A stretch of DNA of 46,423 nucleotides. Source: a virus. The translations under genes and the position numbers were made by a program. This document shows positions 280 through 44,900 of the stretch, one piece after another. A model generated the notes under the pieces. That model made no database searches. It was not told the DNA's origin and worked only from the letters and a program-made list of their open reading frames with translations. The stretch lies in UHGV virus genome UHGV-0336137; one strand, 5' to 3'. Position 1 is the first letter of the stretch, and each line of letters opens with the position of its first letter.

Positions 280-330
280 GCTTTCAATCTACGTCAGCTT
301 TGCACGCCCTGTCAATGGTATAATTACGTC
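280..330. promoter_or_regulatory. divergent promoter region: AATCTACGTCA element (286-296; its reverse complement gives TGACGTAGATT with a -10-like TAGATT pointing leftward) plus extended -10 TGGTATAAT (316-324) for the rightward tail operon
   Basis: same element recurs in about 15 copies in promoter regions; the TGnTATAAT box lies about 28 nt upstream of the ATG at 353, which has an RBS. Confidence 0.45.
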
Positions 331-352
331 ATTATGAAAACAGGATTTAGAC

Positions 353-1060
353 ATGAGACAACGCACACCGCTAACAGAAATCGGAGAAATGCGCATCTCC
401 CTGGATGACAAGTCTTTTTTCTTCAAACCATCATTTGCAGCGATGAATGAGCTTGGCTCACCAAAAGAGATTGTCGAGTTGTACGCTACGCTTAATGGCT
501 ATGAATACGCGGCCATACTCGGCGCCATTCAATCAATGCCATATGGCGCGCAGATTCAGGTGGCAAAAATCCTGTCACGTCCTGCCTATGGTAAGAAGGT
601 GCTCAGCGCCGCCTGCCTCATCATGCAGTCCTGTTGTGATGATAATATCTCGGTGCTCATTGGATCATGGAAGCCGACTCCGCGCGGTGTTAAGTACGTC
701 ACCGGACGAATGCCAGTAAATGACATTATTATTATTGCTCGAAACCTGATGGAGCATGGCATCATCGGCAAGTCTCCGCTCAAGGTTCCTCAGCGCTCGG
801 AAAACCAAAAGCGCACAACCAGTGAGTTGAGAATGTCGGATTACATCATCTCTGCTCGCACTCATTTCGGAATCACCCGCGAGGAAGCCGAAGACCTGAC
901 CATGACCGAGTATCAGCAGATGATAAAATCAAAATACCCGGAACCGGAAGGCATGACGCGCGAGCAGTATGATGCGTCTTATGAGCGGGCTAAGCTGAAT
1001 AAACAGAAAATGAAAGAGAAAGCCGCCAGAAAGGCCGCTAAAAGCAAAGGAGCAAAATAA
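353..1060 (+). CDS. putative tail assembly chaperone (position-based)
   Basis: 235-aa acidic/Lys-rich protein immediately upstream of the tape measure gene; stop overlaps the tape measure start (TAATGG); no frameshift site identified. Confidence 0.35.
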   Translation: MRQRTPLTEIGEMRISLDDKSFFFKPSFAAMNELGSPKEIVELYATLNGYEYAAILGAIQSMPYGAQIQVAKILSRPAYGKKVLSAACLIMQSCCDDNISVLIGSWKPTPRGVKYVTGRMPVNDIIIIARNLMEHGIIGKSPLKVPQRSENQKRTTSELRMSDYIISARTHFGITREEAEDLTMTEYQQMIKSKYPEPEGMTREQYDASYERAKLNKQKMKEKAARKAAKSKGAK

Positions 1061-4000
1061 TGGCAGAAACAGTTGGCGGCATTATCTATGAGGTTGGCAT
1101 TGACACATCTCAGTTAGCAGCTGGTAGTCGTGAATTGCAGTCAATGCTAAATGGCCTTAGCGGGAGCATGGGGCGACTTGAGGCCAGTGTAAACAGGACA
1201 GAGCGCTCTATTGGATCGATGGAACGAACAATGTCCAGCCTTTCTGGCGTTGCCAAGGGATTGTTCGCGGCGCTTTCTGTGCAACAGGTTGCGAGTTACG
1301 CCGATGCCTGGACTGAACTAAATAACAAGGTAGCTAACTCGGTTCGTACTGGAGAGACGCAGACCGAAGTTATGCAGCGGATCTTTGATGTTTCACAAGC
1401 AACCCAGTCATCCCTTAACGGCACGGCGACTCTTTACGCCAGGCTTGAGCGAGGAACCAGGGCGTACAACACCAGCGCGGAAGATTTAGTCCGCCTGACC
1501 ACTATTATCAATCAGGGGTTTGCAGTATCCGGTGCAACAGCTCAGGAAGCTGAGAACGCAATCATTCAGCTATCACAGGGTATCGCTTCCGGCGTTCTGC
1601 GCGGCGAGGAGTTTAACTCAGTGTCAGAGCAAGGCAGCCGCCTCATGGTAGCTCTGGCTGATTCGATGGGTGTTTCTATCGGTCAGTTGAGGGCTATGGC
1701 CGCTCAGGGGCAGCTAACAACAGACGTTGTAGTTAAGGGGCTTCTGTCACAAGGGGATGCCATCGGCAAAGAATTTGCCAACACCACCGTCTCAATCGCC
1801 AAGGGATTGCAGGTAGCCGGCAACAACGTAACGAAGTTCTTTGGCGAAAACTCGACGGTTAAATCATTTGCAGCAGGGTTCCGAGACTCTGTCATCACAA
1901 TAAGTGAGAACCTTGAGACGCTGAGCGGCGCCCTTATCATTGTAGCTGGCATAATGGGAAGTCGGTATGTTGGCGCGCTGGCAATGTCCACTGCCGCGAA
2001 AATATCAGATATAGCGGCATCAAGACAGCAATTAATAGCTGAGAATCAGCAGGCACAATCTGCACTCTTTGCCGCCAATGCCACCCAGAGAAAAGCTTTC
2101 GCTGATAAAGAGGCGGCACTATCATCTGTCGCACTTGCCCAGGCTGAATATAACGTAGCAAAAGGCAGTGCAGCCGAGGCGCTGGCTCTTGATGCTCTTA
2201 TAGCTGCAAAGTCCAGAGCGAGCGCCGCATCATTGTCTTTGGCGCAAGCTGAAAACGCACAGGCCGCGGCATCAGCGAGAGCGGCATCTGCGGCCAGAGC
2301 AGCTTCGGTAGGGGTTGGCCTTGCCAGAGGGGCGCTTTCATTGATAGGCGGCCCAGCAGGAGCGGCGACGTTAGCGGCGGGGGCAATTTTCTACTTCTGG
2401 CAAAAAGCGCAGCAGGCCAGAGAAGAATCCATTCGCTTTGCTGATAGCTTGGATCAAGTTAACGAGTCAATGAAGGCGATGAATAACACCCAGCTAAGGG
2501 GGGTAATTGCCGACGCTAATAAGTCTATTCAGGCACAAGAGGAATATGTAAGGGATCTTGAAGACAGCATTGATAAACTTAAAGGTGAGATTGATGACTA
2601 TACCGCAAGAGGAAAGCTGTTCGGAACAACAATAGAGCAAGGAAACGGGTTACTAAAAATCGCATCAGATAAAACTGATGAACTGAATCAAAAATCGCGC
2701 GACCTTGCGAACGCCAAGGAAAAACTAGCAAGAACTCAGGAAGCCGCATCTGAAGCACGCAGAACCCTTACAAACAACATGCTCACGTCTATGGGTGTGC
2801 ATGACAGCCTGATTGAGAAGGGATCAACGCTTGAAAGGGTGCAGGGCGCTGTAGCAAGAGCATTTGGCCTGACTGCCGATGAGATAAACCGAGCAAATCA
2901 GGCAGGCCAAAACTTCAACCCAAAATCCTTGCAAGTGTCGCCCCCAACAGAAGAAGCTGACAAGATAATCCTCAATCTTGAGGAGCAAAACCAACTTTTA
3001 AAAATACAGGATGAAAGACAAAGGGCAGTAACAAAGGCGAGAATGGAGGCAGCTAAGATAACTGATAACCCCAATCAGATAGCCAGAGCTGCTGAGCTTG
3101 CAGGTCAGATATATGATTTAACTGAGGCTGAGAAAGCAAGAGAAAAAGCGCAAAATGATTCTCAATCAGCGGCCCAAAAAGCCGCCACAGAGCAGGAGAA
3201 TATCGCCAACAAACTTGAGCAACTGCGGCAAGAATCATTGCTAACAGCAGATAGCACAAGAGAGCTAAGTCGAGAGCAAGCAATACTACAGGCACAACAA
3301 TCATTAGGAAAAGGCGCCACAGAGGAGCAAATAAGGCTCGCTGGAGAGTACAAGGCTAAGGCATGGGATAATGCCAACGCGATAAAGGCTCAGGCAGAGG
3401 CGGAGAAACAAAGGGTCGAAGCTGTAAAAGGATTCGCTGCATTAAAATCGCAGACATCACCAATGTTTGCCGTTGAAACAAACTATCAGAAGGATTTAGC
3501 AGCGCTTAATGCTTACGCAGTAGCTTACCCGCAAAAGATAGCGGAGGTTGAGCAGGCCAGAGCAGCAATTGAGGAGCAATACCGCCAGCAGCGCCTTGAT
3601 GCCATGTGGCAGGAGTGGAGTCAGCAGAATGCGGCTACGCAGGCGGCTGCTGCTGCATTTGATGCTTTTGGACAAACTGCAAGTAATGCCTTAACTGGCA
3701 TCCTGACTGGTTCAATGTCTGTTAGCGAGGCGCTACAGTCAATTGGCAGCACTGTGTTAAACGCCGTGATTAACTCATTCGTTCAGATGGGCGTGGAGTG
3801 GCTTAAATCAGTAATCATGGGACAGGCAGGAATGGCAGCGGCATCTGCCGCAACCGCCGCTCAGGCGGCAGGAATAGCAGCGGCTATGGCGCCAGCAGCA
3901 GCGATGACCTCGCTTGCTACATCTGGAGCTAACGCAATCCCAGCTCAGGCTGGTATTGCTTCTACGGTTGGTGTGGCTAAAGCAATGTCTGTTGCCGGGG

Positions 4001-5281: not shown

Positions 5282-5294
5282 CGATTTTGAAAGG

Positions 5295-8168: not shown

Positions 8169-10622
8169 ATGGCTACCACCCCAACTAACAAGCCAGTCCC
8201 GTCTAACGACCTGAATGATTTTAGATACAACTGTGAAAAAGTTGACGAGATTGTAAACTCAGGTAGTGAGACGTACACTGATAGATTCGGCGTGGAAAGA
8301 TATACCATTGATGGGGTAAGAAAAAATCTTATTCCTCTTGGTAAGCAATATATGACACTTTCTGATGCACAGGCTGATATTGCTAATATACCGGTCAACT
8401 CTTACACATACGTGCGCGATGCTTCGGGTACATCTCTGGCGCTGGAATATCAAAATGTAGCTGGTACTCTAACAGCAACTGGTCGTGCAATGCCGTCACA
8501 ACAATCAGTAGACAAAGCATCAAAAGCCGTTGATTCAGGTTTGAATGTTTTGTTTGATCCGCTATTTGAGGTATTGCTATCCAATCCTACCGTGGGAAGC
8601 AAAACACACATTGTTAGCGGAACGTTAACCGCGGCTTTGTCGACCAATGCTAAATTAGGCTTCCCGGCTATTGTGGCCGGACCCGATGCGGGCGCAATTG
8701 CCGCTCGCAGATTATGGCTCGCCGATTGTGCCGTGGATGTCGGGGATACCATATCTTTAAATGTTATCGCATGGTACGCCAATGCTGGTGGGCGCGTTGC
8801 TTTTGTTTTTCGTAATGCGTCTGGTACTGCTATAGGGACACAGTATTTATTATACGCCACCGGAACAGGGTTCAATCGGTATTTGCGCACTCTAACAGTC
8901 CCATCTGGTGCGGTTATGCTGGATGTGCGGGTCGAAAACACCGCTAATGCTGGTACGGTAGAGCTGGACGCAGTGTTTTTGATGTCTGCTACATCCGAAG
9001 CACATCCAACTGTGCCTGGTAGACCCGTGGCCCCCTATGCAGTGCCTCTGAAAAACAACGTTGTGACTACTTCTTCAATTCAAAAGGCCGCCGTCACAGT
9101 GGATAAAGCATCATTTTTCATTCCAGGAGTTAACCTTTTTGATAAAGCTGCCGTCACATCGGGGTATTATGTTAACTATAAGACCGGTAATTTAATCACT
9201 AACGCTTCGTATTCTGCATCTGATTATATCCCTGTAACAGCGGGTCAGAATTACACGCAAAGTTTTTCGCATCAAACAGCCTTCTACGATGCAAATAAAA
9301 CTTATATTTCTGGCGTTGATGCTCTTGTATCTCCATCAACAGCGAGGACTTTAACTATTCCTGCTGGGGCAGCTTATGTACGAATGTCAGTCGCAAATAC
9401 CGCACTCGATACGATGCAATTCGAAAAAGGTAATGAATCCACAAGTTACCAGCCATATGCATTACAGCTGGACCCGTCTTTAATACCAACTACAGCAGCC
9501 CCAGTCGTCGATTATGTAGAGAGAGCCTATCAGCTTCGCGTTACTCGGATGAAATTGGGGCAACTAGAAGCCGGTGTATCGGCCATTCTTAATGTTGGTA
9601 TTTTTGGCGATTCATGGGGAACATTAACCGAAAGATTCGCGAAACCTTTAGCAAAAGCGATTCGTGCTAAATATGGATCCGGCCCTGGTGTTGGCTGGGT
9701 ATCATTCGGCCGTCACAGCACATCCGCATCAATAATTAACGGCAACATTTTCTCAGTCAGCAGAGACCTGCCAACGCAATTCACATGGACAGGATCATGG
9801 TTGTTTAGTTATAGCGGCAAGAAAAACCCAACCAACTCCAGTCCAGATACTGCTGTTGTTACGTCCTCTACACCAGGGGATGCACTGAAGGCTACGGTCC
9901 CTGGCACCTCGGACGGCGGGTGGTCAACCTGCAGGCTGGGCTTTGTGGGTACAAGTGACGGTGTTATTCGATATAACTGGGATGGAGGGGCATGGACGAC
10001 GCTCAACGTGCAAGGTAGCGGACTGCTGTTTGTTGATATTAACCCACCGGCTACTGTAAATGCCTCTAATGTGATTAACGTTGAGGTTGTATCTGGCACG
10101 GTATCGTTATGTGGGATAAAGCCGATTGGCACTGGCTCTGGTGTGCGCGTTCATAAGCTAGGTGCGTCTGGCTCAAGTCTTGCATCATGGTTATCTATGG
10201 ACGCTACTGATTTTGGCAAGGCTTTAACAGAATTAGCTCTTGATACGGTGATTATTATTACCGGCACAAATGACCAGAGGATAACTGGTGGCGCTACTGC
10301 ATTTGAAGCTAACCTGCGCGCTTTTATTGCTCGTATCCGGGAGGCGTTGCCCGGCGCTGATATCCTGTTTGTCATGCCATGCGAGAATGAGCGGACTGAC
10401 AACCCGGTAACGATGGCATCAATGGCAGCCAGGGCCAGGACTGTAGCCTCAGATCTGAATTGCGCGTTTATAAACCTGCAATATATCTTCGGCGAAAACC
10501 CTGCAGATTATGCCTATGGTTCGATACACCCCTGGTTTGCTTCTGACGGTATCCACCCCGACCCGGCAACTGGAGGGTATTTAATAAAAGATGCAATATA
10601 TCGTGTAATGACAATGAGATAA
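8169..10622 (+). CDS. tail fibre / tailspike protein with C-terminal SGNH (GDSL) hydrolase domain
   Basis: ORF-track start 8160 is TTG, ATG at 8169 with GGAG upstream; C-terminal third carries SGNH blocks GIFGDSWG (I), ITGTNDQ (III) and DGIHPD (V). Confidence 0.7.
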   Translation: MATTPTNKPVPSNDLNDFRYNCEKVDEIVNSGSETYTDRFGVERYTIDGVRKNLIPLGKQYMTLSDAQADIANIPVNSYTYVRDASGTSLALEYQNVAGTLTATGRAMPSQQSVDKASKAVDSGLNVLFDPLFEVLLSNPTVGSKTHIVSGTLTAALSTNAKLGFPAIVAGPDAGAIAARRLWLADCAVDVGDTISLNVIAWYANAGGRVAFVFRNASGTAIGTQYLLYATGTGFNRYLRTLTVPSGAVMLDVRVENTANAGTVELDAVFLMSATSEAHPTVPGRPVAPYAVPLKNNVVTTSSIQKAAVTVDKASFFIPGVNLFDKAAVTSGYYVNYKTGNLITNASYSASDYIPVTAGQNYTQSFSHQTAFYDANKTYISGVDALVSPSTARTLTIPAGAAYVRMSVANTALDTMQFEKGNESTSYQPYALQLDPSLIPTTAAPVVDYVERAYQLRVTRMKLGQLEAGVSAILNVGIFGDSWGTLTERFAKPLAKAIRAKYGSGPGVGWVSFGRHSTSASIINGNIFSVSRDLPTQFTWTGSWLFSYSGKKNPTNSSPDTAVVTSSTPGDALKATVPGTSDGGWSTCRLGFVGTSDGVIRYNWDGGAWTTLNVQGSGLLFVDINPPATVNASNVINVEVVSGTVSLCGIKPIGTGSGVRVHKLGASGSSLASWLSMDATDFGKALTELALDTVIIITGTNDQRITGGATAFEANLRAFIARIREALPGADILFVMPCENERTDNPVTMASMAARARTVASDLNCAFINLQYIFGENPADYAYGSIHPWFASDGIHPDPATGGYLIKDAIYRVMTMR

Positions 10623-11163: not shown

Positions 11164-12201
11164 TTAAAAGTTTTCGATGTTCTGTTGAGATGTTGATGGC
11201 TTCTCTTCGTTTGCAGATGACGCAGGCGCATCTGCTTTCTGGAGTTTTGCCGGGTTGAAATCGTCCTGCGGTGTGATAGTTACCGCCGCTGGCGATTCAT
11301 CATTAATGAATGATTCAATGCGCTCATACTCTTCTGCTGATGCCTTCAATGTAGGCCAGATTGCACGAATTTTTGCTTTCACTGAATCAGGCAAGTTAAC
11401 TGCCTCGGCAGTTAGCGCAGCAATGCCTTTTGACGCCGTCATTTGAAGTTTAGAGCGCCAGTGCTCAAACTCTTCGTCGACCTTGACACCTGAATCTACC
11501 CATTTAATTAAACCACGACCATGAGCCTCGCCTAAGTATCCTTCGTGCACACTATCACGGCCTGAATCAAAGAAAATTGGACGCAACTCTTCTGGTAGCT
11601 TGGTAAATTCCTGAATTTTCCCATTATCATACATCATCATGCTTACTGTCATTTCAAACATAAAATCTTTTTCGCATACAGCATGCAATCCGAGGGATTC
11701 AGGTTTCTTGGGGTTTTTAAAGCTCGTTTTCTCTCTGGCGCGTAAACATACAATGATATGCATATTGCTCTGCAAAAGAGCGCTCATGAATTTTTTATGT
11801 TCAGACTTAGCTCGCTTCCAGTCTGCCATTGCCTTACCCTGCAATAGTGGTTGCTCTGCAATATCATTGCATCCGCCTTCACCTTCCCATTCGTGCGATC
11901 CTGAATCAATAACCAGAACCTTAACGCCTGCCTCCTGAAATTCCTCGATAGCCTGGCGGTAACGAGCTGGACTAAATGGCGCATACAAATCAGCGTGCAT
12001 AAATGGACCGTCAAGCTCTCCAGAATAAAGCCTGCCACGACCATTTTCAGAGTCAAGAAATCCAATTTCTTCTGGTTTATCGACCATACCTCGCGCCATC
12101 TTTAGTGCCGTAAGCGTCTTACCGCTACCAGACTGACCTGAAATGCCAATCACTACGCGTGAACCAGAGCGCTCTGCTGGCTTAATGTTTAAAATACCCA
12201 T
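11164..12201 (-). CDS. RecA-fold ATPase (AAA_24 / Sak4-like recombination-associated protein)
   Basis: Walker A GISGQSGSGKT near the N-terminus; ORF-track start is GTG, ATG at 12201 has an AGGTGA RBS; sits between SSB and exonuclease as in phage recombination modules. Confidence 0.55.
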   Translation of the reverse strand: MGILNIKPAERSGSRVVIGISGQSGSGKTLTALKMARGMVDKPEEIGFLDSENGRGRLYSGELDGPFMHADLYAPFSPARYRQAIEEFQEAGVKVLVIDSGSHEWEGEGGCNDIAEQPLLQGKAMADWKRAKSEHKKFMSALLQSNMHIIVCLRAREKTSFKNPKKPESLGLHAVCEKDFMFEMTVSMMMYDNGKIQEFTKLPEELRPIFFDSGRDSVHEGYLGEAHGRGLIKWVDSGVKVDEEFEHWRSKLQMTASKGIAALTAEAVNLPDSVKAKIRAIWPTLKASAEEYERIESFINDESPAAVTITPQDDFNPAKLQKADAPASSANEEKPSTSQQNIENF

Positions 12202-12224
12202 CACTTCACCTCATTTACTATAAA

Positions 12225-13204: not shown

Positions 13205-13230
13205 ATCAATCTACATCAAACCACGTCATT
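13205..13230. promoter_or_regulatory. promoter element CAATCTACATCA..CCACGTCA (leftward); reverse complement gives TTGATG-17nt-TAGATT
   Basis: same element family as at 286; about 25 nt upstream of the ATG at 13181; the VRR-NUC stop codon lies inside the second half-site. Confidence 0.4.
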
Positions 13231-15585: not shown

Positions 15586-15630
15586 AATCTACGTCACAAT
15601 AGTAGACTGAATCTACGGCAATAATCAAGG
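15586..15630. promoter_or_regulatory. divergent promoter region with two tandem copies of the element (CAATCTACGTCA 15586-15597, GAATCTACGGCA 15609-15620)
   Basis: lies between the divergently transcribed helicase (-) and primase (+) genes. Confidence 0.45.
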
Positions 15631-18544: not shown

Positions 18545-19003
18545 AATTTACCCTCGCTAACGACTTTTAACCATGATACCCCATAAATTACCCTCCGTAA
18601 AGCGTCCGCAAACAAACTTTGTTTAGGGTTAGCTGGGTTAACTGTGGGGAAGGCCATCTTCCCCAAGATTTTTTACTGTAAGTGTATGTATTATAATAAT
18701 AGTAGTAGTAGTTGGGTTAATTGGGTATATTATTATTCATATTATAGATTTTATTATAACAATAAATTAACAAATGAATTATATGGGTTATATATAAGGG
18801 GATATGAGTGAAAACATACCCTGCTGCCCCTAAATTGTTAAATTACAATATTAACATTAACTTACCGCGAAAAATCTGGGGCAATTAACCTGCCCCAGCA
18901 CCTTACCCACAGGGGTAAATTTTACCCCAGGCGGATTTATTTTCACCATCATATTGACGTAGATTGAGCGCCATCGTATAGTTACCACACCAACAACAAA
19001 GAG
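18545..19003. promoter_or_regulatory. AT-rich early control region: hairpins, (T)TGGGTTA / GGGGTAA half-site repeats (at least 8), a 17-bp palindrome GGGGTAAATTTTACCCC (18912-18928), and the promoter element TTGACGTAGATT (18954-18965)
   Basis: 460 bp without credible ORFs between the replication operon start and the early rightward operon; repeat positions about 18625, 18634, 18712, 18721, 18784, 18903, 18912, 18921. Confidence 0.45.
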
Positions 19004-23804: not shown

Positions 23805-23840
23805 ATTACAATCTACATCAACCACGAATCCACGTCAACA
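23805..23840. promoter_or_regulatory. promoter element CAATCTACATCAACCACGAATCCACGTCAACA (reverse complement: TTGACG-17nt-TAGATT, leftward)
   Basis: member of the recurrent AATCTACGTCA family; near-duplicate of the site at 13205. Confidence 0.4.
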
Positions 23841-24159: not shown

Positions 24160-24215
24160 TTTCATTTTAATCTACGCCATGCTAGAATCTACGTCAAGGC
24201 GCATTGACATAACTA
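24160..24215. promoter_or_regulatory. divergent promoter region with two element copies (AATCTACGCCA about 24169, AATCTACGTCA about 24186) and a TTGACA box
   Basis: between genes 23852..24142 (-) and 24232..24471 (+). Confidence 0.4.
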
Positions 24216-24231: not shown

Positions 24232-24471
24232 ATGAAGGCATACTCATCTTTTTCGTGGGAGCAGAAGGAAAAAATATACTCACTCGCAAGAGCTGGCGTG
24301 TCTGATGAAGCACTGTGCGAAAGGTACGATGTTGATGAGGCTATTCTTCTGCGCATGTATGATGAAGTGCTGTGTGAGTTGCAGCGGCGTCGTGGTTACA
24401 GCGGGCTGAAGACGATTAATGATTTCTTTCGGAATGTTGAGTTAAATAACGATGAGGGTGGTGATTTATGA
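24232..24471 (+). CDS. hypothetical protein (79 aa)
   Basis: ORF in accessory island; no homology recognised. Confidence 0.4.
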   Translation: MKAYSSFSWEQKEKIYSLARAGVSDEALCERYDVDEAILLRMYDEVLCELQRRRGYSGLKTINDFFRNVELNNDEGGDL

Positions 24472-24700: not shown

Positions 24701-25072
24701 TTATGCCTCAACCCAGTCGCCATCTTCGTTTTTAACGACCTCGACAAGGGTGTCGAACTGGCGTTTGCATTCTGCCGGGTCATCGCCCCAGGTTGGCATT
24801 TCAGCCAGCCAGTTTTTATCCGTGTCGACTGAACCGGTAAAGGGGTTCATCAGGAATTTTTCAGTAGTCATTTTGAGAGCCTCGTTAATTTCGCTTATGC
24901 GGGAATGAAGCACACGCTGCACATCCGCACCTATGGTTGATGGCAGTGCATACTTTCCTGTGACCCAGTGCCGGACCGTTCGGTCGCTGACGGAAAGTCT
25001 TTCCGCCATCTCGGTGACGAAGTGATTCCCGAACGCAGCCTTTCCAGCGGCGATAAAAGCTTCGATGTTCAT
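24701..25072 (-). CDS. helix-turn-helix DNA-binding protein
   Basis: HTH ..VTEMAERLSVSDRTVRHWVTGKYALPS..; start taken at the internal ATG (MNIEAF) with AAAGG RBS. Confidence 0.5.
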   Translation of the reverse strand: MNIEAFIAAGKAAFGNHFVTEMAERLSVSDRTVRHWVTGKYALPSTIGADVQRVLHSRISEINEALKMTTEKFLMNPFTGSVDTDKNWLAEMPTWGDDPAECKRQFDTLVEVVKNEDGDWVEA

Positions 25073-25073
25073 A

Positions 25074-25280
25074 TTACGCCTTTGCGAGATTCCAGGTTGA
25101 TTTAAGGGCGGCAGCAAAGAATTCACAAGCTTTACGACCCGCATTTTGGGGAAGAGATGCGAAGCCTTTTGCTTCTGCCCATGCTGCGCGCATGATTGCT
25201 GCTTTGTCGAATTTGCCGTTGACGATCAGCGTTGCTTTAGTGGCTGCCTGGTTTTTTTTGAAAGAGTTGAGAATGCGCAT
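25074..25280 (-). CDS. hypothetical protein (68 aa)
   Basis: ORF immediately upstream of, and same strand as, the HTH gene. Confidence 0.3.
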   Translation of the reverse strand: MRILNSFKKNQAATKATLIVNGKFDKAAIMRAAWAEAKGFASLPQNAGRKACEFFAAALKSTWNLAKA

Positions 25281-25548: not shown

Positions 25549-25577
25549 AATCCCATCACTACCGATGGGATTTTTTT
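25549..25577 (+). terminator. strong hairpin plus T-run (terminator/attenuator) overlapping an extended -10-like TGCTATAAT (25543-25551)
   Basis: AATCCCATC-ACTACC-GATGGGATT then TTTTTTT, 12 nt before the portal start. Confidence 0.45.
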
Positions 25578-25588: not shown

Positions 25589-26983
25589 ATGTCAAAGTTA
25601 GAGGCGGTGAACGCCTATATTCAGCAGCGAGTGGCGAACAATAACAGACTCATCGAGCGGCAGCGCCGGGAGTTTAGCGGGAAGAACCTTGACCAAAAGC
25701 ACGACAGGCTTTGGTCGGAGTGTGGTTACAGCCAGGAGATTACAGCAGCAGATTTCCGCTTTGCCTACGAGCGATATCCGTTAGCTACAGCGGCGGTTAA
25801 CCTTGTGCTCAATAAGTCGTGGCAAGGTATGCCCACCGTTCTTGAGCACAATGCTGATGACGAGGCAACATCCAAATGGGAAGTTTCGGTAAACAAAATC
25901 CTCAAGAAGTCAGCTCCATTTATCAAAGATGCTGATAAGCGCAACCTGATCAACCGCTACTCAGGCTTGCTGCTTCAGATAAATGATGGCGGCCAATGGA
26001 GTGATCCTGTTAATGTGACCAAAACAGGCAGAATTAAAGATGCGGCAATCGTTAGGCTAATCCCATGCTGGGAGGAGCAGTTGCGCGTTTCTCAGTGGCA
26101 AAATGACGAGTCAAAGGAGGACTACGGACAGCCTTTGATGTTCGAGTACCAGGAAAGCGCCGTTGATGATTTTGATAACGATGGTAAGCCAAAGCGATCG
26201 GTTAAAATCCACCCTGACCGCATTATTACTCTCGCAGAGGGTGGTTTCGATGGGAGCATATTCTCTGGCATTCCTCTGCTTCGAGCTGGATTTAACGCTT
26301 TAATAGACTGCGCCAAAATTACCGGAAGTTCAGCGGAAGGGCTTCTCAAAAACTCATCACGTCAATTATCTATATCCTTCAACAAAGATAATGTATCTGT
26401 GCAATCCCTTGCGCAGCAAATGGCCGTTACGGTAGAGGAGCTGCCAGATATCCTTAATGAAGATATAGAAAGAATAAATAGCGGGATTGACGCTGCGATG
26501 TTTGGGTTTGGCAATGATGTGGATGTGCTGTCAGTAACCATGAACGACCCTGAACCGTTCATGTACGTAGCGGCCAGCCAATTTGCTTCATCCGTAAATA
26601 TTCCTCTTAACTCATTGCTCGGTAGTCGCAGCGGCGTACTTGCGTCCGCAAATGATGAGCAGTCACTTGCCATGATGGCAATGCAGCGTCGTGACGGGTG
26701 GCTCGATTATCTTATTTCTGTGTTCGTCGAGCGTTTAATTAAATTCGGCATCATCGACAAAGCGCCAGAGGCCGGATATTACTGCAAGTGGAATGACTTG
26801 CTGGAGCCTACGCAGAACGACAAGGCAGAATTGATTGTCAAGCTGGCGCAAGCTGCGCAGAGCGCTGCGAATGCAGGTTTGGACCCAATCCTGACGGCAG
26901 ATGAAATTCGCTCATTCCTTGGCCTTGATCCAATAAAATTACCAGGCGGCATGAGTGAGGATGACCCATCACAAGAGGAGTGA
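25589..26983 (+). CDS. portal protein (putative)
   Basis: about 465 aa directly upstream of a MuF-like gene; start moved to MSKLEAV (GGTGA RBS); size/position and acidic C-terminus fit portal; no motif-level proof. Confidence 0.55.
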
Positions 26984-27077
26984 TGATATAATAAATGTGC
27001 AGCTAGGGGGCGCCCGAAAAGATGAACGTAGACATCCTGCTGCATCCTCAGTCTACGAACCTACTACGAGGTTAATC

Positions 27078-27983
27078 ATGGCAAAAAGACTCACCACGGA
27101 AGACTTCATTTCTCGCGCCAGGCAAAAACATGGCGATAAATACATTTATGATAAGTCTGTGTTTTCTGGAACGAAAAAACAAGTAACGATAACCTGCAAA
27201 AAACATGGCGATTTTACTCAAAAAGCGGAATGCCATCTTGCTGGTTACGGCTGCGAACTTTGCGCCAGAGATGTTCGGGCAAGAAAGTTAATGACATCAA
27301 ATGATGAATTTATCTCTAAAGCTAAAATGGTTCATGGTGATAAATACTCATATGACAAGTGCATATACTCAGGAAATCACAGGAAGGTGTTGGTAACATG
27401 TCAAAAGCATGGTGACTTTTCACAACAACCGGCAAACCATCTATCAGGAAATGGCTGTCCATCATGCAAACTTGAGCTCCTGTCTGAAAAGTTCAGCGAT
27501 AATAAAGCCTCATTCATAACAAAAGCAAGAGCAATTCACGGAAGAAGATACTCATACGAGAAAGTTAATTACATGAAAAGTTCAATAAAAGTGTGTATTA
27601 CGTGTCATATCCATGGCGATTTCTATCAGACACCTAACTCGCACTTGTGGGGGGCCGGTTGCAATAAATGCACAGCTTATGGGTTTAAACCTGCAAGTGT
27701 ATATGTGGCTGAAATGGATGGGGCGTGCAAGATAGGTGTAAGCAACAACACTGAAAGAAGAATGAAAAGCATATCAAAATCAGCAGGGAAAACTGTCGCT
27801 GTGGTTGCTGAGTACTCATTCCCATCATGGGCTGACGCGAGAAAGGCTGAATCAATGATACACAAAGAAATAAAACATAAAAATGCAGGGTTAACCGGAT
27901 TTGATGGGTCGAGAGAATTTTTCAATATATCAACCCATGAGGCGGCAGAATTGGTTTTAAAGCATGGAGGAAGAGTGAAATGA
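27078..27983 (+). CDS. T5orf172 (GIY-YIG-related) domain protein with four tandem zinc-binding modules; homing-endonuclease-like
   Basis: four repeats of about 60 aa (..KHGDKY.YDK..Y.G....V...C.KHGDF.Q....HL.G.GC..C); C-terminal ..VYVAEMDGACKIGVSNNTERRMKSISK.. T5orf172-type motif; inserted between portal and MuF-like genes. Confidence 0.55.
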   Translation: MAKRLTTEDFISRARQKHGDKYIYDKSVFSGTKKQVTITCKKHGDFTQKAECHLAGYGCELCARDVRARKLMTSNDEFISKAKMVHGDKYSYDKCIYSGNHRKVLVTCQKHGDFSQQPANHLSGNGCPSCKLELLSEKFSDNKASFITKARAIHGRRYSYEKVNYMKSSIKVCITCHIHGDFYQTPNSHLWGAGCNKCTAYGFKPASVYVAEMDGACKIGVSNNTERRMKSISKSAGKTVAVVAEYSFPSWADARKAESMIHKEIKHKNAGLTGFDGSREFFNISTHEAAELVLKHGGRVK

Positions 27984-30289: not shown

Positions 30290-30365
30290 TGTGTTTGTGT
30301 ATCTACATCATCGCTTACGATTCAATCTACGTCAAGACTATTGTGATAAAATAATCTGCATCACC
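30290..30365. promoter_or_regulatory. divergent promoter region: three element copies (TATCTACATCA 30300, AATCTACGTCA 30324, AATCTGCATCA 30353) and extended -10 TGATAAAAT (30344-30352) for the lysis operon
   Basis: between the secreted-protein gene (-) and the endolysin gene (+). Confidence 0.45.
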
Positions 30366-31981: not shown

Positions 31982-32451
31982 TTTACCTCCCCGCTTAGCT
32001 CATTAACAATTAATGTTGCATAGCCAGCAATGTCTTTCCAGCTATCGTCGTATGTCGGGTCGCCATTCAGGATTCTACCGATTTTATGCTGAATCATGTC
32101 CAGCGCCTCACGTTGGCTTGGGGTGAGGTTATGCCACCCGTCAACCTCGTGCATGACGAATTTCAACTCCTGCATGATGGCTGCGCCGTCTTTGAATTTC
32201 CCGTAGCGGCTGCCGCGCTCGGTGATAAGGGCTTCTGTGGAACTGGTGCGCCCATTCAAGTCATCATCAGTTACTGGCTCACGATGGGCGATAACAATAT
32301 CGCCAGCCTTTTCGATATCCTTATCTCGCCCTGCGTAATCCAAGCCAAGATGGTATACCCTGCCACTGATCGCTGACTTCACAACAAGAATGGCGCCAGG
32401 ATGGTCGTAAAAATCCGCTTCACTTCCTTTATGGTATTTGTATTTCATCAC
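31978..32451 (-). CDS. hypothetical protein; C-terminal half possibly all-alpha NTP-pyrophosphohydrolase (MazG/HisE-like)
   Basis: ..TPSQREALDMIQHKIGRIL...DSWKDIAGYATLIVNEL.. resembles the paired acidic helices of MazG-like domains; weak assignment. Confidence 0.35.
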   Translation of the reverse strand: MMKYKYHKGSEADFYDHPGAILVVKSAISGRVYHLGLDYAGRDKDIEKAGDIVIAHREPVTDDDLNGRTSSTEALITERGSRYGKFKDGAAIMQELKFVMHEVDGWHNLTPSQREALDMIQHKIGRILNGDPTYDDSWKDIAGYATLIVNELSGEVK

Positions 32452-32648
32452 TCACCTCTCAACGTAACTTTGTTTTTCTCATCCACGCTGAAGTGTTCGC
32501 GCACAAACGCATACATTTCTTCAGCACTCCATTCACGCATTGCTACATAGCAGTGCGCGTAATATCTGACATCTCGCAGGCTTAACGGCTGGCGCTTAGC
32601 GATAATCTCAGTCAGTACTTCCAGTGGTTCTTTGCGTTGTCTCGCCAT
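32448..32648 (-). CDS. hypothetical protein (66 aa)
   Basis: first gene of the minus operon; AGGAGAG RBS. Confidence 0.4.
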   Translation of the reverse strand: MARQRKEPLEVLTEIIAKRQPLSLRDVRYYAHCYVAMREWSAEEMYAFVREHFSVDEKNKVTLRGE

Positions 32649-32654: not shown

Positions 32655-32740
32655 TCTCCTGTGAAAATCATCTTGACGAATCTACGTCAATTAGTCAATA
32701 CTTGCTGGTGTAGATTGTAACATAAATAGATAAGGTGGTG
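32655..32740. promoter_or_regulatory. symmetric divergent promoter: AATCTACGTCA (about 32679-32689) and inverted copy TGGTGTAGATT (about 32706-32716), each positioned so the other copy's TAGATT falls about 33 nt downstream
   Basis: 96-bp intergenic region between genes starting at 32648 (-) and 32745 (+); TTGACG box at 32674. Confidence 0.5.
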
Positions 32741-34816: not shown

Positions 34817-34939
34817 ATGCCAATCATACTGATATCATTCTTTGCTACTCTTTTCGCTTTTACCGCATCTCCGCTTTACCTTCTCGCGTCCGTTTCGTGG
34901 TGCATATTCATGGTGTGTTATAATCCGGGCATAAAGTAA
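34817..34939 (+). CDS. 40-aa hydrophobic membrane peptide
   Basis: AGGAGG RBS 8 nt upstream of ATG; MPIILISFFATLFAFTASPLYLLASVSWCIFMVCYNPGIK; overlaps the TGTTATAAT promoter of the head operon. Confidence 0.3.
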   Translation: MPIILISFFATLFAFTASPLYLLASVSWCIFMVCYNPGIK

Positions 34940-38303: not shown

Positions 38304-38305
38304 CA

Positions 38306-40490: not shown

Positions 40491-41305
40491 CACAGCTTCT
40501 CCAGAATAGCCAGAACTTCACCCAACTCAGCGGAAGGAAGGCGCAAAAATTCTTCTGTCTCCTGTGCCACATGACCCTCAGCGACAACCATATGGTCTGC
40601 TTCTTTCAGCAACTGAATCAGGCGGTCAATCGGCTTAACTTTTTTGGCCTTGAGCGTTTTAGCCGTCACCTTATCTTTGCCCTGCGCTTTCGCTTCCTCA
40701 ACGGCGGCATCAATAACGTTAACGGCATCATCGCCATGCTCACGTGCGACCGCAACGGCGTTGGCATAGCTGATTTGGCCTGCATTGATACGCTGCTTGA
40801 TGGCATCAGGTACATCACCAAGTGACAGGTGCATTTGCACATCAGACACAGAGCGCCCGACCTTCTTGGCGATTTCTTCATTCGTCCACCCGAACCCTTT
40901 GAGGCGCACATAAGCCTTTGCACGCTCAAGCGGGTCGAGTTGCTTGCCCTGACTTGAAGACACCATGAAGGCGATTTTATCCGCCTCATCGCCGGTGAAG
41001 TCTTTGCACTCAATTCGCGCAATTGGCACGCCGCGCTCAATGGCACGCAGTGCTCCAAGGTAACGATGCTGGCCGTCAAGAATCTTGATGCGCTTTCCGT
41101 CGGCATCAGGAATAACAGTTAACGCCGGGATTGGCTGTCCTGATTCCCAACACTGCGCGAAGTATTCAACGTGCTGCTCATCGGCTTCGCGGATGTTGTA
41201 CCCCGGCTCAAGGTAAAGCTGGTCGACAGGGACCTGATAACCTTTGTTGACCACGATTCCGCCGCGAGTTTCTTTGTCTGAGTAAATTTTTCCGAGAGAT
41301 GTCAT
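40490..41305 (-). CDS. ParB/Sulfiredoxin-domain protein (ParB-like nuclease domain)
   Basis: ..KRIKILDGQHRYLGALRA.. ParB N-terminal box; start moved to ATG (MTSLGK) with GAGGGA RBS. Confidence 0.6.
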   Translation of the reverse strand: MTSLGKIYSDKETRGGIVVNKGYQVPVDQLYLEPGYNIREADEQHVEYFAQCWESGQPIPALTVIPDADGKRIKILDGQHRYLGALRAIERGVPIARIECKDFTGDEADKIAFMVSSSQGKQLDPLERAKAYVRLKGFGWTNEEIAKKVGRSVSDVQMHLSLGDVPDAIKQRINAGQISYANAVAVAREHGDDAVNVIDAAVEEAKAQGKDKVTAKTLKAKKVKPIDRLIQLLKEADHMVVAEGHVAQETEEFLRLPSAELGEVLAILEKL

Positions 41306-41313
41306 CTTTCCCT

Positions 41314-41429: not shown

Positions 41430-41719
41430 TGGGGTTCTCCGAGTGCTTTTGCGATTGCGGCATAGGCCTTGCTCAAGGCAGTGGCATTCCTTTTTGTTGG
41501 CGTAGTGAAGACTACAAGCATCTCCAGAGCCTCCAGCAATTCCGGCGCAGCGGCCATCATTCGTTGGTTGGCAATTTGAACCTCAACCTCAGGGTCAAAC
41601 TCAACCCAGCCGACAGGAATAATCACTCCATAAGACTGGTCGTCATCTGTTGATTTTGGCCCTATTGCCCTGCTGTTATCTCCAAACCACGGCCCCGGCG
41701 TACCTTTGAATTCATTCAT
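41426..41719 (-). CDS. hypothetical protein
   Basis: first gene of the ParB/Dcm operon; start placed at the third in-frame Met (GAGGTGA RBS). Confidence 0.4.
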   Translation of the reverse strand: MNEFKGTPGPWFGDNSRAIGPKSTDDDQSYGVIIPVGWVEFDPEVEVQIANQRMMAAAPELLEALEMLVVFTTPTKRNATALSKAYAAIAKALGEPQ

Positions 41720-41744
41720 CCTCATCACCTCTAACATTTATTGT

Positions 41745-41805
41745 TGTTTCTACGTCATCACTATAGCGACACCCTCAATCTGCGTCAACACTTTATGATA
41801 AAATT
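41745..41805. promoter_or_regulatory. divergent promoter region: element variants TTTCTACGTCA (about 41747) and AATCTGCGTCA (about 41777) leftward; extended -10 TGATAAAAT (41796-41804) rightward
   Basis: between the ParB operon (-) and the head-tail joining operon (+); TGATAAAAT is identical to the lysis-operon promoter box. Confidence 0.45.
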
Positions 41806-42607: not shown

Positions 42608-42725
42608 AAACGTCAATATTAACTGTAAATATCGCAATCCGTAAATGGTGCATGCCGTTGCTGGTTATTCTGGTATTGCTGCGCCTTCCTGTTCCGCGCT
42701 GGATTTATACTCTTGAGGCCGCACC

Positions 42726-43070
42726 ATGTCAGCGATAGCTAGATGGTGCTATACGCAGCCATGCACAATCTGGCGGCTTACTGGCAAGGATAAGTATGGC
42801 AAGCCAACATTCGCCGCGCCAGAGTCCATCGTGTGTGATTATGGCTTCGATAAGAATCTGACCACCGGCACAGTTGGCAATGAGATTGCACAGAAAAACA
42901 CATTCTGGACGGAATATCAGAATGCGTCTGTTGGCGACTTCATCATGCTTGGCATCATTACCAGCGCTGACCCGCTGACCGCCGGAGCTGACCAGATTAG
43001 AAACGTCGTGAATTACGGCGACACACTAAATCGCAACGACCTGCCTGATTTTGCGCTGGTAACGGGGTAA
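42726..43070 (+). CDS. putative head-tail adaptor protein (position-based)
   Basis: 114 aa. Confidence 0.3.
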   Translation: MSAIARWCYTQPCTIWRLTGKDKYGKPTFAAPESIVCDYGFDKNLTTGTVGNEIAQKNTFWTEYQNASVGDFIMLGIITSADPLTAGADQIRNVVNYGDTLNRNDLPDFALVTG

Positions 43071-43174
43071 TGTATGAGCAGAAGAGAGAGACTTTTGAAG
43101 TGCGCGCAGCTTAATCTTGACTTGATGCGGTTAGGCGTCAAACCCATCTGGCAACTGCATTACTGGATGAAATA

Positions 43175-43591
43175 ATGGCCGCCAAAATGCGAGGTATCCA
43201 GCAGGCGATCAAGCGCACTCAGCAGATTGTAGGCGAGATTACTGGTGAGAAGGCGGTATCAGCAATAAAAGCCGCCAACTACATCATCAGGACTGAATCG
43301 GCCTCCATGACGCCAGTGGCCACGTCAGCTCTGATAAACAGCCAGTATGATACTGTTGAGGTTAATGGCACTCGCATAACTGGCAAGATTGGGTATTCCG
43401 CTAATTACGCCCTGTATGTCCATAATGCACCAGGTAAATTGCTTGGCACGAATACTCCGCGCACAGGGAGACTTAAAGGAAAGGGAAATGTATGGGATAA
43501 GAGCGGCGAGCCTAAATTCCTTCTCAAGGCTGGCGAAAACACACGCGAGCTTGTCGATCAGGTAATTAAAAAAGAGATGACGCTAAAATGA
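43175..43591 (+). CDS. putative neck / tail completion protein (position-based)
   Basis: 138 aa. Confidence 0.35.
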   Translation: MAAKMRGIQQAIKRTQQIVGEITGEKAVSAIKAANYIIRTESASMTPVATSALINSQYDTVEVNGTRITGKIGYSANYALYVHNAPGKLLGTNTPRTGRLKGKGNVWDKSGEPKFLLKAGENTRELVDQVIKKEMTLK

Positions 43592-43971
43592 GAGATATGC
43601 TTGAGCTTGTTGGCCAGTACCTTAGCGATGCCGGTCTTTATGATGGGTGGACTTCTCAGCTTGAGTTCTGGAACGATACCGAAGTTGGCACAGACCGGTT
43701 TATGGTGCTGCAATCCAATGGTGGTACGAACGTAAGCAAAGACCTCAGCAATGATTATTATTTTTCGCTCTATGTTGTCGGCCAGCGGGGTCAGTACAAC
43801 ATCGAGGAGACAAAAGCAAAAGCGCTTGATGTCATCGCATACATCAAGGAGCATCCCGTTGATAGTTGCATTGGCATGATTCAGTTGCAGGCTCCGCTTG
43901 GACGCCCGACGCTCACAACGGAACAGAGACCGGTTTATGAATTGTTGCTGAGGGTTGTTTTTGGTGAATAA
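43588..43971 (+). CDS. putative tail terminator / tail completion protein (position-based)
   Basis: 127 aa, ATGA-coupled; last gene before terminator. Confidence 0.35.
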   Translation: MRDMLELVGQYLSDAGLYDGWTSQLEFWNDTEVGTDRFMVLQSNGGTNVSKDLSNDYYFSLYVVGQRGQYNIEETKAKALDVIAYIKEHPVDSCIGMIQLQAPLGRPTLTTEQRPVYELLLRVVFGE

Positions 43972-43997
43972 AAAAAGGCCGCTAATGAGCGGCTTTT
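43972..43997. terminator. bidirectional rho-independent terminator
   Basis: AAAAAAAGGCCGCT-AATG-AGCGGCTTTT. Confidence 0.55.
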
Positions 43998-44181
43998 AAT
44001 AGTCATTACTACATAATAAATAATCAATGGCATCGCCAAGAGATTCGAATCTGGCATCATATCTCCCGGCAGGATTTGCAACAATATACCACTTCCCGAC
44101 CTTTGATATACCAGCAATCCTACTGTTATTTTGGTCAGCTATGCGCCAGTAATCATCGTGGATTTTTTGGATTTGTATCAT
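43996..44181 (-). CDS. hypothetical protein (61 aa) co-transcribed with the tRNA cassette
   Basis: ATG with GGTGAG RBS 16 nt downstream of the last tRNA. Confidence 0.35.
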   Translation of the reverse strand: MIQIQKIHDDYWRIADQNNSRIAGISKVGKWYIVANPAGRYDARFESLGDAIDYLLCSNDY

Positions 44182-44196
44182 TGCGCTCACCGAATA

Positions 44197-44274
44197 TGGT
44201 TCCCGCGACAGGATTCGAACCTGTACTCATCCGATTATGAGTAGGGTGCTTTAACCAGTTAAGCTAAACGGGAA
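44197..44274 (-). tRNA. tRNA-like sequence, possibly degenerate tRNA-Met/Ile2 (CAT anticodon)
   Basis: canonical T-arm ACAGGTTCGAATCCTGT, D-arm GCTT/AAGC, 3' CCA and loop CTCATAA, but the anticodon stem pairs poorly and the acceptor has a 7:66 mismatch. Confidence 0.4.
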
Positions 44275-44276
44275 TT

Positions 44277-44353
44277 TGGCGCACCATACTGGATTCGAAC
44301 CAGTTACCGATTGCTTAGAAGGCAATTGCTCTATCCTGATGAGCTAATGGTGC
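44277..44353 (-). tRNA. tRNA-Arg (anticodon TCT)
   Basis: 77 nt; acceptor GCACCAT/ATGGTGC, D-stem GCTC/GAGC, anticodon arm ATTGC-CTTCTAA-GCAAT, T-arm ACTGGTTCGAATCCAGT, encoded CCA. Confidence 0.85.
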
Positions 44354-44359
44354 TGAATG

Positions 44360-44447
44360 TGGCGGATAGTACAGGATTCGAACCTGTGAACCGTTTCCGG
44401 TTTATCGGTTAGCAACCGACTGCTTTCGGCCTCTCAGCCAACTATCC
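44360..44447 (-). tRNA. tRNA-Ser (anticodon GCT), type II
   Basis: 88 nt; acceptor GGATAGT/ACTATCC, anticodon arm GTCGG-TTGCTAA-CCGAT, long variable arm AAACCGGAAACGGTTC, T-arm ACAGGTTCGAATCCTGT, CCA. Confidence 0.8.
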
Positions 44448-44858
44448 GTGGTGTTGTGGTGTCCGGTGCTGGCATCCGGCATAAGGCGCTTATTCGGCGG
44501 CGTCGAGCTTGCTTATTCGCTTGAGCCATCCTCGTGAGTCAGCCACGTCCCACTGCGCATCAGCCTGCGCATTGACCACAACGGAAAGAGCACTCCAGGA
44601 CTTACCACACGTACTTTTGCGCATAGGTCGTCACCAGTGCGGGCGTGTCCCCTGAAGCTACCTGACAATGCTCTTACCTGTTGTGTGCCCATTATTAATC
44701 ACACCGGGCCAGTGCGCCGAATTCATTGACAAGGAGTCGGAAGACCTTGCTGGTGTTTAGCCGTTAGGCTACTGCCAGATACATTTCTTCGTTTGCATTT
44801 ATCTTTGTGGTCAGTTTCTAAAAACCCGCAAAGTCGCACCGAAAACTATCTGCCATTA
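44448..44858 (-). other. about 410-nt non-coding leader between the leftward promoter element and the tRNA cassette (candidate structured RNA, cos/pac or origin)
   Basis: no ORF of 60 aa or more on either strand; GC-rich with direct repeat CTGCGCAT x2. Confidence 0.3.
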
Positions 44859-44900
44859 AATCTACACCACCAATCAAAACCTGTCAACATGATATAATGC
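44855..44900. promoter_or_regulatory. divergent promoter region: AATCTACACCA (44859-44869; leftward TGGTGTAGATT for tRNAs) plus extended -10 TGATATAAT (44890-44898) for the major tail gene
   Basis: same spacing (element to -10, 33-34 nt) as at 286-324; GAGAGGA RBS before ATG 44933. Confidence 0.5.

Follow-up and report, generated by a model that had tools for sequence, protein, structure and literature searches.

We propose that TGRYGTAGATT, an 11-bp word repeated in the promoter regions of the virus genome UHGV-0336137, is an asymmetric operator for a clade-specific phage DNA-binding protein, set within about 12 sigma-70 promoters; to this proposal we give roughly an even chance, and the binder would probably act as a monomer. 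The stretch analyzed, hereafter the window (46.4 kb; 46,423 nt), is the essentially complete, circularly permuted genome of a virulent Klebsiella siphovirus, whose nearest named phage is vB_KpnS_ZX4 (~97% identity to the window) and whose kin, KpV2811, BUCT541, pYD38-A, and pIS4-A, form a Roufvirus-like group. Neither an integrase nor a repressor is annotated in the clade, which indicates a virulent lifestyle. Rightward modules of structural and lysis genes alternate along the window with leftward modules of DNA metabolism genes and small genes of unknown function, and the module borders are marked by bidirectional terminators.

The word was strongly over-represented in the window: TGACGTAGATT occurred exactly in 6 copies against 0.01 expected, TGRYGTAGATT in 11 against 0.07, and sequences with at most one mismatch to the word in 16 against 2.8, all 16 of them intergenic. 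It was also the top over-represented 10-mer and 11-mer of the genome. When scored with a position weight matrix (PWM), 17 sites reached at least 14.6 and the background stayed at or below 13, the sole exception being a match in a tail-fibre gene at 9328 that is not conserved in ZX4. All 17 sites fell within the 7.2% of the window that is non-coding (P ~4e-20), spread over 10 loci, and every one was co-oriented with the next gene in its reading direction. These counts, far above chance, bear out a preliminary description of this genome, which had reported an element of about 15 copies confined to promoter regions; its coordinates were right to within 1 nt (15587 is 15586), and an extra weak copy at 13218 overlaps the one at 13208. 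That description also had each copy facing a gene start 20-45 nt away. The orientation held throughout, but the distance held only for the copy nearest the gene (22-47 nt from the start codon), since the distal copies of tandem arrays lie at 43-75 nt and the copy at 44859 lies 411 nt from the tRNA genes. The consensus, T-G-R-Y-G-T-A-G-A-T-T, is often followed by (G/C)-A. T1, G2, G5, and G8 were invariant in the 17 window sites and nearly so among 113 unique sites from nine genomes, and conservation ended abruptly at the borders of the 11-mer, except for an A at +12. The 11-mer has no dyad symmetry, that is, it is asymmetric. The copies in the window are as follows.

286..296, minus strand: TGACGTAGATT, the -10 box of TTGACA(315-310)-N18-TAGATT, 30 nt 5' of gp46 (255, leftward).
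13208..13228, minus strand: TGATGTAGATT at 13208-13218 and, overlapping it at an offset of 10 bp, the weaker TGACGTGGTTT at 13218-13228; TTGATG-N17-TAGATT, with its -10 box in the proximal copy, precedes the exoVIII/recombinase/SSB operon.
15586-15596, minus strand: TGACGTAGATT, at about -2 to +9 of the DEAD-helicase operon promoter.
15610-15620, minus strand: TGCCGTAGATT, wholly in the spacer of TTGATT(15628-15623)-N18-TACTAT(15604-15599), preceding the DEAD-helicase operon.
18955..18965, plus strand: TGACGTAGATT, giving the -35 box of TTGACG(18954-18959)-N17-TATAGT(18977-18982), preceding gp65 and the genes that follow it.
23810..23837, minus strand: a tandem of TGACGTGGATT (23827) and TGATGTAGATT (23810), 17 bp apart, with the -35 box in the TTGACG of the upstream copy and the -10 box in the TAGATT of the downstream one; it drives a small leftward open reading frame (ORF; ~23763).
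24169..24196, minus strand: a tandem of TGACGTAGATT (24186) and TGGCGTAGATT (24169), 17 bp apart, forming TTGACG-N17-TAGATT ahead of gp01 and overlapping the opposite-strand extended -10 box TGCTAGAAT (24180-24188) of gp02.
30300..30363, minus strand: three copies, TGATGTAGATA (30300), TGACGTAGATT (30324), and TGATGCAGATT (30353), ahead of the gp09 cluster and interleaved with the opposite-strand extended -10 box TGATAAAAT (30344-30352) of the endolysin gene.
32679-32689, minus strand, and 32706-32716, plus strand: an inverted pair in the gp15/gp16 divergent region, TGACGTAGATT reading toward gp15 and TGGTGTAGATT toward gp16; the 32706 copy overlaps the minus-strand extended -10 box TGTTACAAT (32722-32714).
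41747, minus strand: TGACGTAGAAA, at about +1 and ending in TAGAAA; it opens a 35-nt leader conserved across genera.
41777, minus strand: TGACGCAGATT, the -35 box of TTGACG-N17-TATAGT (41788-41760), ahead of the gp33-ParB-methylase-RusA operon.
44859..44869, minus strand: TGGTGTAGATT, the -10 box of TTGACA(44887-44882)-N17-TAGATT; it heads a leftward unit of a conserved leader of ~400 nt and three tRNA genes (44197-44447), the sole recognizable genes of the unit.

Because the word holds both a -35-like (T)TGACG and a -10-like TAGATT, either half could be taken by RNA polymerase as a hexamer. The element stands as the -10 box at 286, 13208, 23810, 24169, and 44859, and as the -35 box at 18955, 41777, 24186, and 23827. 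Many copies read TTGACGTAGATT, with the first half then used as the -35 box, and the two 17-bp tandems (24186/24169 and 23827/23810) take the -35 box from the upstream copy and the -10 box from the downstream copy. The earlier suggestion that TAGATT can serve as a -10 hexamer is therefore right for the first five loci but wrong for 18955 and 41777 (-35 use), 15610 (in the spacer, in nine genomes), and 41747 (near +1, TAGAAA); the TTGATG and TTGACG boxes that it placed 17 nt 5' of TAGATT at 13208 and 23810, respectively, are both present, as is the inverted pair at 32679/32706. Among the 113 unique sites, 20% had a -35 box (at least 5 of 6 matches) 16-18 nt 5' of TAGATT, compared with 1.7% of random positions, and 15% had a -10 box of like quality 16-18 nt 3' of TTGACG, compared with 1.4%. 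The use of the two halves followed the variant of the word: the TGACG variant paired with -35 use (26 of 57 sites), and the TGATG, TGGTG, and TGGCG variants paired with -10 use (16 of 52), with a downstream -10 box in just 2 of the 52. Thus, a subset of sites shows the 16-18-nt hexamer spacing and the -10 box with A2 and T6 of sigma-70 promoters, and about half of the copies have no good partner hexamer. The word is not an extended -10 (TGn) element, as its invariant TG falls at -17/-16, two positions off the extended -10 TG, with R/Y at -15/-14 and G at -13. A generic whole-genome promoter scan was not enriched over shuffles (31 vs. 30.8, 24 vs. 24.1, and 19 vs. 14.5), so that the informative promoter test was the site-anchored geometry alone. 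Since the partner spacing was enriched about tenfold and use was variant-specific, we concluded that the host sigma-70 polymerase almost certainly uses the hexamers of the word. The element acts on transcription rather than translation, because the unit headed by 44859 has only tRNA genes.

The word was conserved at orthologous positions over long evolutionary distances. Orthologous intergenic sites carry it in ZX4, KpV2811, pYD38-A, VLCpiS13a, and ZCKp20p, and it is unchanged in Akiravirus, in Macdonaldcampvirus Vi II-E1, and in the Skatevirus-like Bas78 and seszw, where even conserved genes share only ~75% nucleotide identity; these distant genomes hold 13-20 copies each, and the word is their top 10-mer too. 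In total, it was found in nine other genomes and four further genera-level lineages (Roufvirus, Skatevirus, Akiravirus, and Macdonaldcampvirus) from Klebsiella, Salmonella, and E. coli hosts, in agreement with the expectation that it should recur in related phages, and its orientation with the downstream gene held at the orthologous sites. It was absent from four outgroups, Jersey, Webervirus PKP126, Veterinaerplatzvirus 26020II, and Aeromonas Avpd1, the last three of which have the replication module in common with the clade at 35-40% protein identity; on this ground we consider the word clade-specific. An exact 14-mer scan of IMG/VR returned at least 120 loci, many on 44-49 kb contigs, a length that matches this clade, and those on contigs of other lengths were taken as chance matches. 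Three of the outgroups have highly repeated promoter-like words of their own, namely TTAACAAAAAGTGCTAT (~9 times in Webervirus PKP126), TAGTTGACAC (~7 times in Avpd1), and AGTGCTATTT (~7 times in 26020II), and siphoviruses of this kind may generally have extended promoter or operator words particular to their clade.

What was conserved at these sites was the whole word. At orthologous sites between genera, both halves were 92-93% identical and the 14-nt flanks 43-48%. At the gp46 site, TTGACA and the 11-mer are kept across genera, with the 12-13 nt between them fully scrambled. At the helicase/primase locus, all nine genomes show a -35 box (TTGACG, TTGACT, or TTGATT), 1-2 nt, the 11-mer, 5 nt, and a -10 box (TAATTT, TAATCT, TACTAT, or TAAGCT), so that the word is neither hexamer. 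In every genus, the spacer of the exoVIII promoter is taken up by a second copy at a 10-bp offset, the Akira copy being nearer the consensus than that of the window. At the gp33-ParB operon, every genus has a copy at about +1 that ends in TAGAAA and lacks the final T needed by a -10 box, and in distant genera CATAGT stands at exactly 17 nt from the central copy of the 30300-30363 array. Because the half that is not used as a hexamer is as constant (92-93%) as the other while the flanks diverge, sigma-70 alone is insufficient to account for the word, and the earlier remark that the TGACG half exceeds what sigma-70 requires was well founded.

The element promoters are closely associated with a different promoter type, the extended -10 boxes, as listed here.

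316..324, plus strand: TGGTATAAT, extended -10 promoter of the tail operon, back-to-back with the 286 promoter (TGTCAA followed directly by TGGTATAAT, 310-324).
24180, 25543, 30344, 34916, 41796, and 44890, plus strand: extended -10 boxes.
18761, minus strand: TGTTATAAT, extended -10 box ahead of the helicase cluster.
32722, minus strand: extended -10 box.

The preliminary description had assigned such boxes to plus-strand late operons. They are present at 316, 25543, 30344, 34916, 41796, and 44890, but the limit to the plus strand did not hold (18761 and 32722), and the split between plus-strand extended -10 boxes and minus-strand element copies is approximate, with two extended -10 units on the minus strand and two element copies on the plus strand. 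Five of the extended -10 boxes are interleaved with element promoters of the opposite strand. At 44882-44898, the leftward -35 box directly abuts the rightward extended -10 box (TGTCAAca followed by TGATATAAT), and twice, at 24180 and 32722, the final AAT of the opposite-strand box is supplied by the reverse complement of the element. Two further observations concern these boxes. Directly 3' of the 25543 box (TGCTATAAT), a terminator-like hairpin (25549-25572; AATCCCATCACTACCGATGGGATT and then a T run) overlaps the annotated portal start; the portal gene may in fact begin at an ATG further downstream, or the hairpin may have a regulatory role. A degenerate word-like sequence, TGGTGCATATT (34898-34908, plus strand), lies 7 nt 5' of the extended -10 box of the coat gene (34916); the five close relatives have the identical sequence, which scores 10.3 with the PWM, under the site threshold.

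In the operator model that we propose, RNA polymerase would use one half of the word or the other as a hexamer according to the site, and a regulator would read the whole 11-mer. The units driven would be early or middle ones, comprising small host-takeover-like genes, the recombination, helicase, methylase, and resolvase operons, and the tRNA unit. Every copy lies, in variable register, inside the footprint of RNA polymerase (-35 box to about +10); since the copies lie within the footprint, their occupancy would shut the promoters off, and since the register is variable, repression by occlusion is the most natural effect, and a factor held in fixed position on the polymerase a less natural one. 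Of the two options raised previously, a phage-specific promoter class or a regulator's binding site, the second thus fits best, and the first less well because the position of the copies varies. The shut-off would include the promoter of the candidate regulator's own operon. Because the polymerase sites overlap, silencing an element promoter would free the extended -10 promoter next to it, and the freed promoters of the structural and lysis genes would constitute an early-to-late switch. The enrichment, placement, and orientation of the word, its conservation between genera, the sigma-70 geometry, and the selection on the unused half were observed directly in the sequences; that a protein binds, that it represses, when the units are expressed, and which protein is the binder are inferred. 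Several points weigh against it. The orientation is fixed at all 17 sites, which simple steric repression does not need, although a reversed word might create antisense promoter hexamers, which may be why it is avoided. At the DEAD-helicase, gp15, and gp16 operons, all of them essential, the sigma-70 hexamers close to the element are weak, as would fit positive control equally well. The tandem spacings (10, 17, 24, and 29-31 bp) show no consistent helical phasing, either among themselves or relative to the extended -10 boxes.

One alternative is positive control, in which a MotA/AsiA-like appropriator or a small sigma-like factor that recognizes only a -10-type element would guide host RNA polymerase to the 11-mer. 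Each copy would then be a middle promoter or a site for an activator, with initial expression alone left to the sigma-70 hexamers nearby. The strict co-orientation with transcription, the weak canonical promoters just named, the lack of a good partner hexamer at about half of the sites, and the normal promoter distance of the proximal copies from start codons (22-47 nt) would all be explained. In T4 middle promoters, the MotA box (TGCTTtA) lies in the -35 region, centered at about -30 and 11-12 bp from a TAnnnT -10 box, and is used by AsiA-remodelled sigma-70; the -35-type copies at 18955, 41777, 24186, and 23827 have a like geometry, spanning -34 to -24 with a center at about -29. The MotA box is unrelated in sequence, however, and has a fixed position, whereas the word also stands in the -10, spacer, and +1 positions, which is hard to square with a factor fixed on the polymerase, and the conserved TAGAAA copies lack the final T of a -10 box. 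Pfam and PHROGs searches of the conserved candidates yielded no sigma-, MotA-, or AsiA-like protein, and the match of gp15 to MotA is generic (E = 0.6). We therefore regard positive control as unlikely. Ordinary strong sigma-70 promoters, with no extra factor and with the word kept by promoter strength or by cassette copying, are a distinctly unlikely explanation in our judgment. Both halves are hexamer-like and are used at an exact spacing of 17-18 nt, siphoviruses of this kind commonly have extended promoter consensus sequences particular to a clade, and the outgroups have promoter-like 10-mers such as AAAAAGTGCTAT (9 times in Webervirus) and TAGTTGACAC (Avpd1). Nevertheless, no base-specific contact of sigma-70 would fix TAGATT between -29 and -24 or TGRYG between -17 and -13; the TG misses its extended -10 place by two positions; G8 is invariant although a G at -10, like a T at -8, departs from the consensus; and the spacer, 10-bp-offset, and +1 copies are conserved across genera amid scrambled neighbors. 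As for cassette copying, 11 bases are too short for homologous exchange, and the flanks have no similarity.

The word might instead be the site of a conserved host protein, an Enterobacteriaceae global regulator or nucleoid protein exploited by the phage, which we hold to be very unlikely. It is invariant over phages of Klebsiella, Salmonella, E. coli, and Shigella, whose candidate phage proteins are just 52-67% identical, and sequence searches of the candidates found no phage DNA-binding domain. On the other side, the word is limited to one phage clade, and related phages of the same hosts lack it; judged by consensus sequences, it does not fit CRP, FNR, Fur, LexA, PhoB, OmpR, or sigma-28, -32, -38, -54, or -E, IHF fits only in its WATC core, and DnaA has 3-4 mismatches, including the critical CACA. 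Extremely improbable, in our view, is a signal at the RNA level, such as a translational operator or processing site in 5' leaders. Co-orientation with genes at 22-75 nt 5' of start codons would suit such a signal, as would the conserved 35-nt leader opened by the 41747 copy; but the word is largely untranscribed, being itself the -10 or -35 box at no fewer than five loci, one unit has tRNA genes only, and no Rfam family overlaps the element, only three tRNAs having matched in the window.

Two leaders downstream of element copies were themselves conserved. The 35-nt leader before the gp33/ParB operon (41719-41757, minus strand; TGACGTAGAAACAACAATAAATGTTAGAGGTGATG) is near-invariant across genera, and the nearby intergenic DNA has diverged. 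The leader of ~400 nt between the 44859 promoter and the three tRNA genes (44448-44858, minus strand) is strongly conserved in Akira and Bas78 over its first ~60 nt (cagatagttttcg...gcgactttgcgggtttttagaaactgaccacaaagata). The 44400-44900 leader region gave no significant Rfam match and no clade-conserved ORF, and the leader may be a non-coding RNA or a processing leader.

With regard to the protein that would occupy the operator, the regulators named in the preliminary description, a helix-turn-helix (HTH) protein, a winged-helix (MarR-like) protein, and a ParB-like protein, proved to be poor candidates, the first two being patchy in distribution and the third having a palindrome of its own. 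The 147-aa HTH protein (24701-25144) is present only in the window phage and ZX4, and the MarR-like protein occurs in 6 of the 10 element-bearing genomes. The third is described by the following entry.

40493..41305, minus strand: ParB/Spo0J/KorB-family protein (Pfam HTH_ParB 4e-11, KorB 2e-6; PDB Spo0J 1e-11).

This protein shows 81% identity between genera and is deleted in VLCpiS13a, so that it is dispensable; the deletion is recent, as the remnant is 96% identical. A single conserved palindrome is found in each genome, 5-7 nt 3' of the major-tail extended -10 box, at 44904-44917 in the window and at Akira 19215, Bas78 23067, Vi II-E1 18437, and seszw 12484. The Klebsiella subclade has it as TGTTTAGCTAAACA and the Salmonella/E. 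coli subclade as G-TTAGC-A-GCTAA-C, and it resembles the RK2 KorB operator TTTAGC(G/C)GCTAAA (PMC11790492, PMC5577506). Because the family reads palindromes and a KorB-operator-like palindrome is present, we down-weighted the ParB-like protein for the 11-mer; judging from sequence, it is more likely to be matched to the 44904-44917 palindrome, which may be a KorB-like control point on the late promoter.

Four small proteins, gp46, gp02, gp15, and gp22, co-occurred perfectly with the element (10 of 10 bearing genomes and 0 of 4 lacking it). All four, together with all 13 element copies, are retained in the smallest viable genome-reduced mutant of seszw (PMC9825161), from which the other universal small proteins gp69, gp17, and gp28 are deleted. 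Over 300 transfers of seszw, neither gp15 nor gp02 was ever lost, so that both are probably important. Searches of the universally conserved small proteins against Pfam, PHROGs, and PDB sequences found no DNA-binding family, and the candidate phage proteins share 52-67% identity between genera. Structure models nevertheless singled out two of them.

32448..32648, minus strand: gp15 (66 aa), predicted winged helix with a basic N-terminal arm, the first gene 3' of an element-bearing promoter.
24232..24471, plus strand: gp02 (79 aa), three-helix HTH-like model with weak fold matches (E >0.5) and the same phyletic pattern as gp15.

The protein gp15 may be the binder and is the leading but unproven candidate, with gp02 as a possible second. 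The case for gp15 is weakened in that only one of five models was confident and the Foldseek matches were not significant, that its third (putative recognition) helix is acidic and variable, and that winged helices also mediate protein-protein contacts; the likeness of its fold to the MotA N-terminal domain (E = 0.6) is a generic winged-helix match. Similarly, gp02 is acidic. Most gp02 homologues have 94-100 aa and an extra acidic C-terminal tail, and the window copy (79 aa) is apparently truncated at the C-terminus. At its boldest, the operator model would have the whole early/middle programme of about 12 units run by one very small monomeric protein of a new family, for example gp15, that silences the early promoters and frees the late ones, its 11-bp site having evolved to double as either sigma-70 hexamer, which we think rather improbable. 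In a more radical variant, where a -35 or -10 box is missing, the factor could let RNA polymerase use the word as its substitute.

Three other regions of the window attracted attention. At 11164-12204 (minus strand), a module swap relative to ZX4 has placed a 346-aa protein, annotated as a P-loop NTPase/AAA protein in ZCKp20p, where ZX4 has an Erf-like annealing protein. Between the portal and head-morphogenesis genes, a 342-aa ORF (26955-27983, plus strand) is lacking in ZX4, is 84% identical in seszw, and is gone from the minimal seszw mutant. The AT-rich stretch at 18545-18955, between the helicase cluster and gp65, has no genes; it contains GC-rich hairpins at 18645-18665 and 18876-18898, the 17-bp palindrome GGGGTAAATTTTACCCC (18912-18928), and the extended -10 box at 18761, and repeats are annotated at the equivalent position in Vi II-E1. 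This stretch is a candidate replication origin.

The known system nearest to this one, by likeness of mechanism and not of descent, is that of the operators and stoperators of the cluster A mycobacteriophages (the L5 gp71 or TipsytheTRex repressor). The L5-type repressor acts as a monomer on more than 20 asymmetric 13-mers whose orientation tracks transcription (PMC9283540). Like that system, the element is a short non-palindromic word (11 bp here, 13 bp in L5) in more than 15 dispersed copies, placed at promoters and in short intergenic regions, with an orientation that correlates with transcription. The L5 word also holds a -35-like TTGACA. Unlike here, L5 is temperate with an immunity repressor, whereas the present clade is virulent and infects Gram-negative hosts; moreover, most copies here stand at operon starts and double as hexamers rather than lying between co-directional genes, as only 13208 and 23810/23827 do. 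No homologue of the 183-aa two-domain repressor of the L5 gp71 type was found among the window ORFs in Pfam and PHROGs searches of the conserved candidates. The C1 operators of P1 are asymmetric 17-bp sites scattered at many promoters and served by one repressor, with several overlapping hexamers; they are like the word in being asymmetric, dispersed, and hexamer-overlapping, and unlike it in their length, their unrelated sequence, and the temperate plasmid-prophage lifestyle of P1, and no C1 homologue is known in the window. The start-associated sequence (SAS) of cluster K mycobacteriophages is reportedly a conserved asymmetric intergenic repeat of ~13 bp, gene-oriented and with no known binder, that adjoins start codons and probably acts in translation; here, in contrast, one unit has tRNA genes only and copies form promoter hexamers. 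The RK2 protein KorB controls many promoters from dispersed operators (PMC11790492), and the phage likewise encodes a ParB-family protein and has a KorB-operator-like palindrome at one late promoter; however, the KorB operator is a 13-bp palindrome read by a dimer, the OB-like palindrome occurs once per genome, and the 11-mer, being asymmetric, is not a parS- or OB-type palindrome of 13-16 bp.

Literature searches for the word and its variants returned only primers and unrelated sequences, and no discussion of promoters was found in papers on ZX4-like, Roufvirus, and Skatevirus phages; the word thus appears to be previously undescribed in the searchable literature. As far as can be told from sequence, a dispersed asymmetric phage operator that doubles as promoter hexamers would be a known kind of system in a new form. 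Several phages of the clade (ZX4, BUCT541, KlebP_265, and ZCKp20p) are being developed against multidrug-resistant and hypervirulent Klebsiella, and the Salmonella relative seszw is already a chassis for genome minimization. A word that marks every early/middle promoter would give an immediate map of the transcription units and could serve engineering by supplying promoter parts, a switchable operator, and safe insertion points, and its use as bait gives a simple route to the regulator. That one site may act as a -35 box, a -10 box, a spacer operator, or a +1 operator according to the locus is mechanistically unusual. Taken together, if the early promoters do compete with back-to-back extended -10 promoters as proposed, the arrangement would give a lytic phage a compact temporal switch unlike those of the T4, T7, and lambda models.

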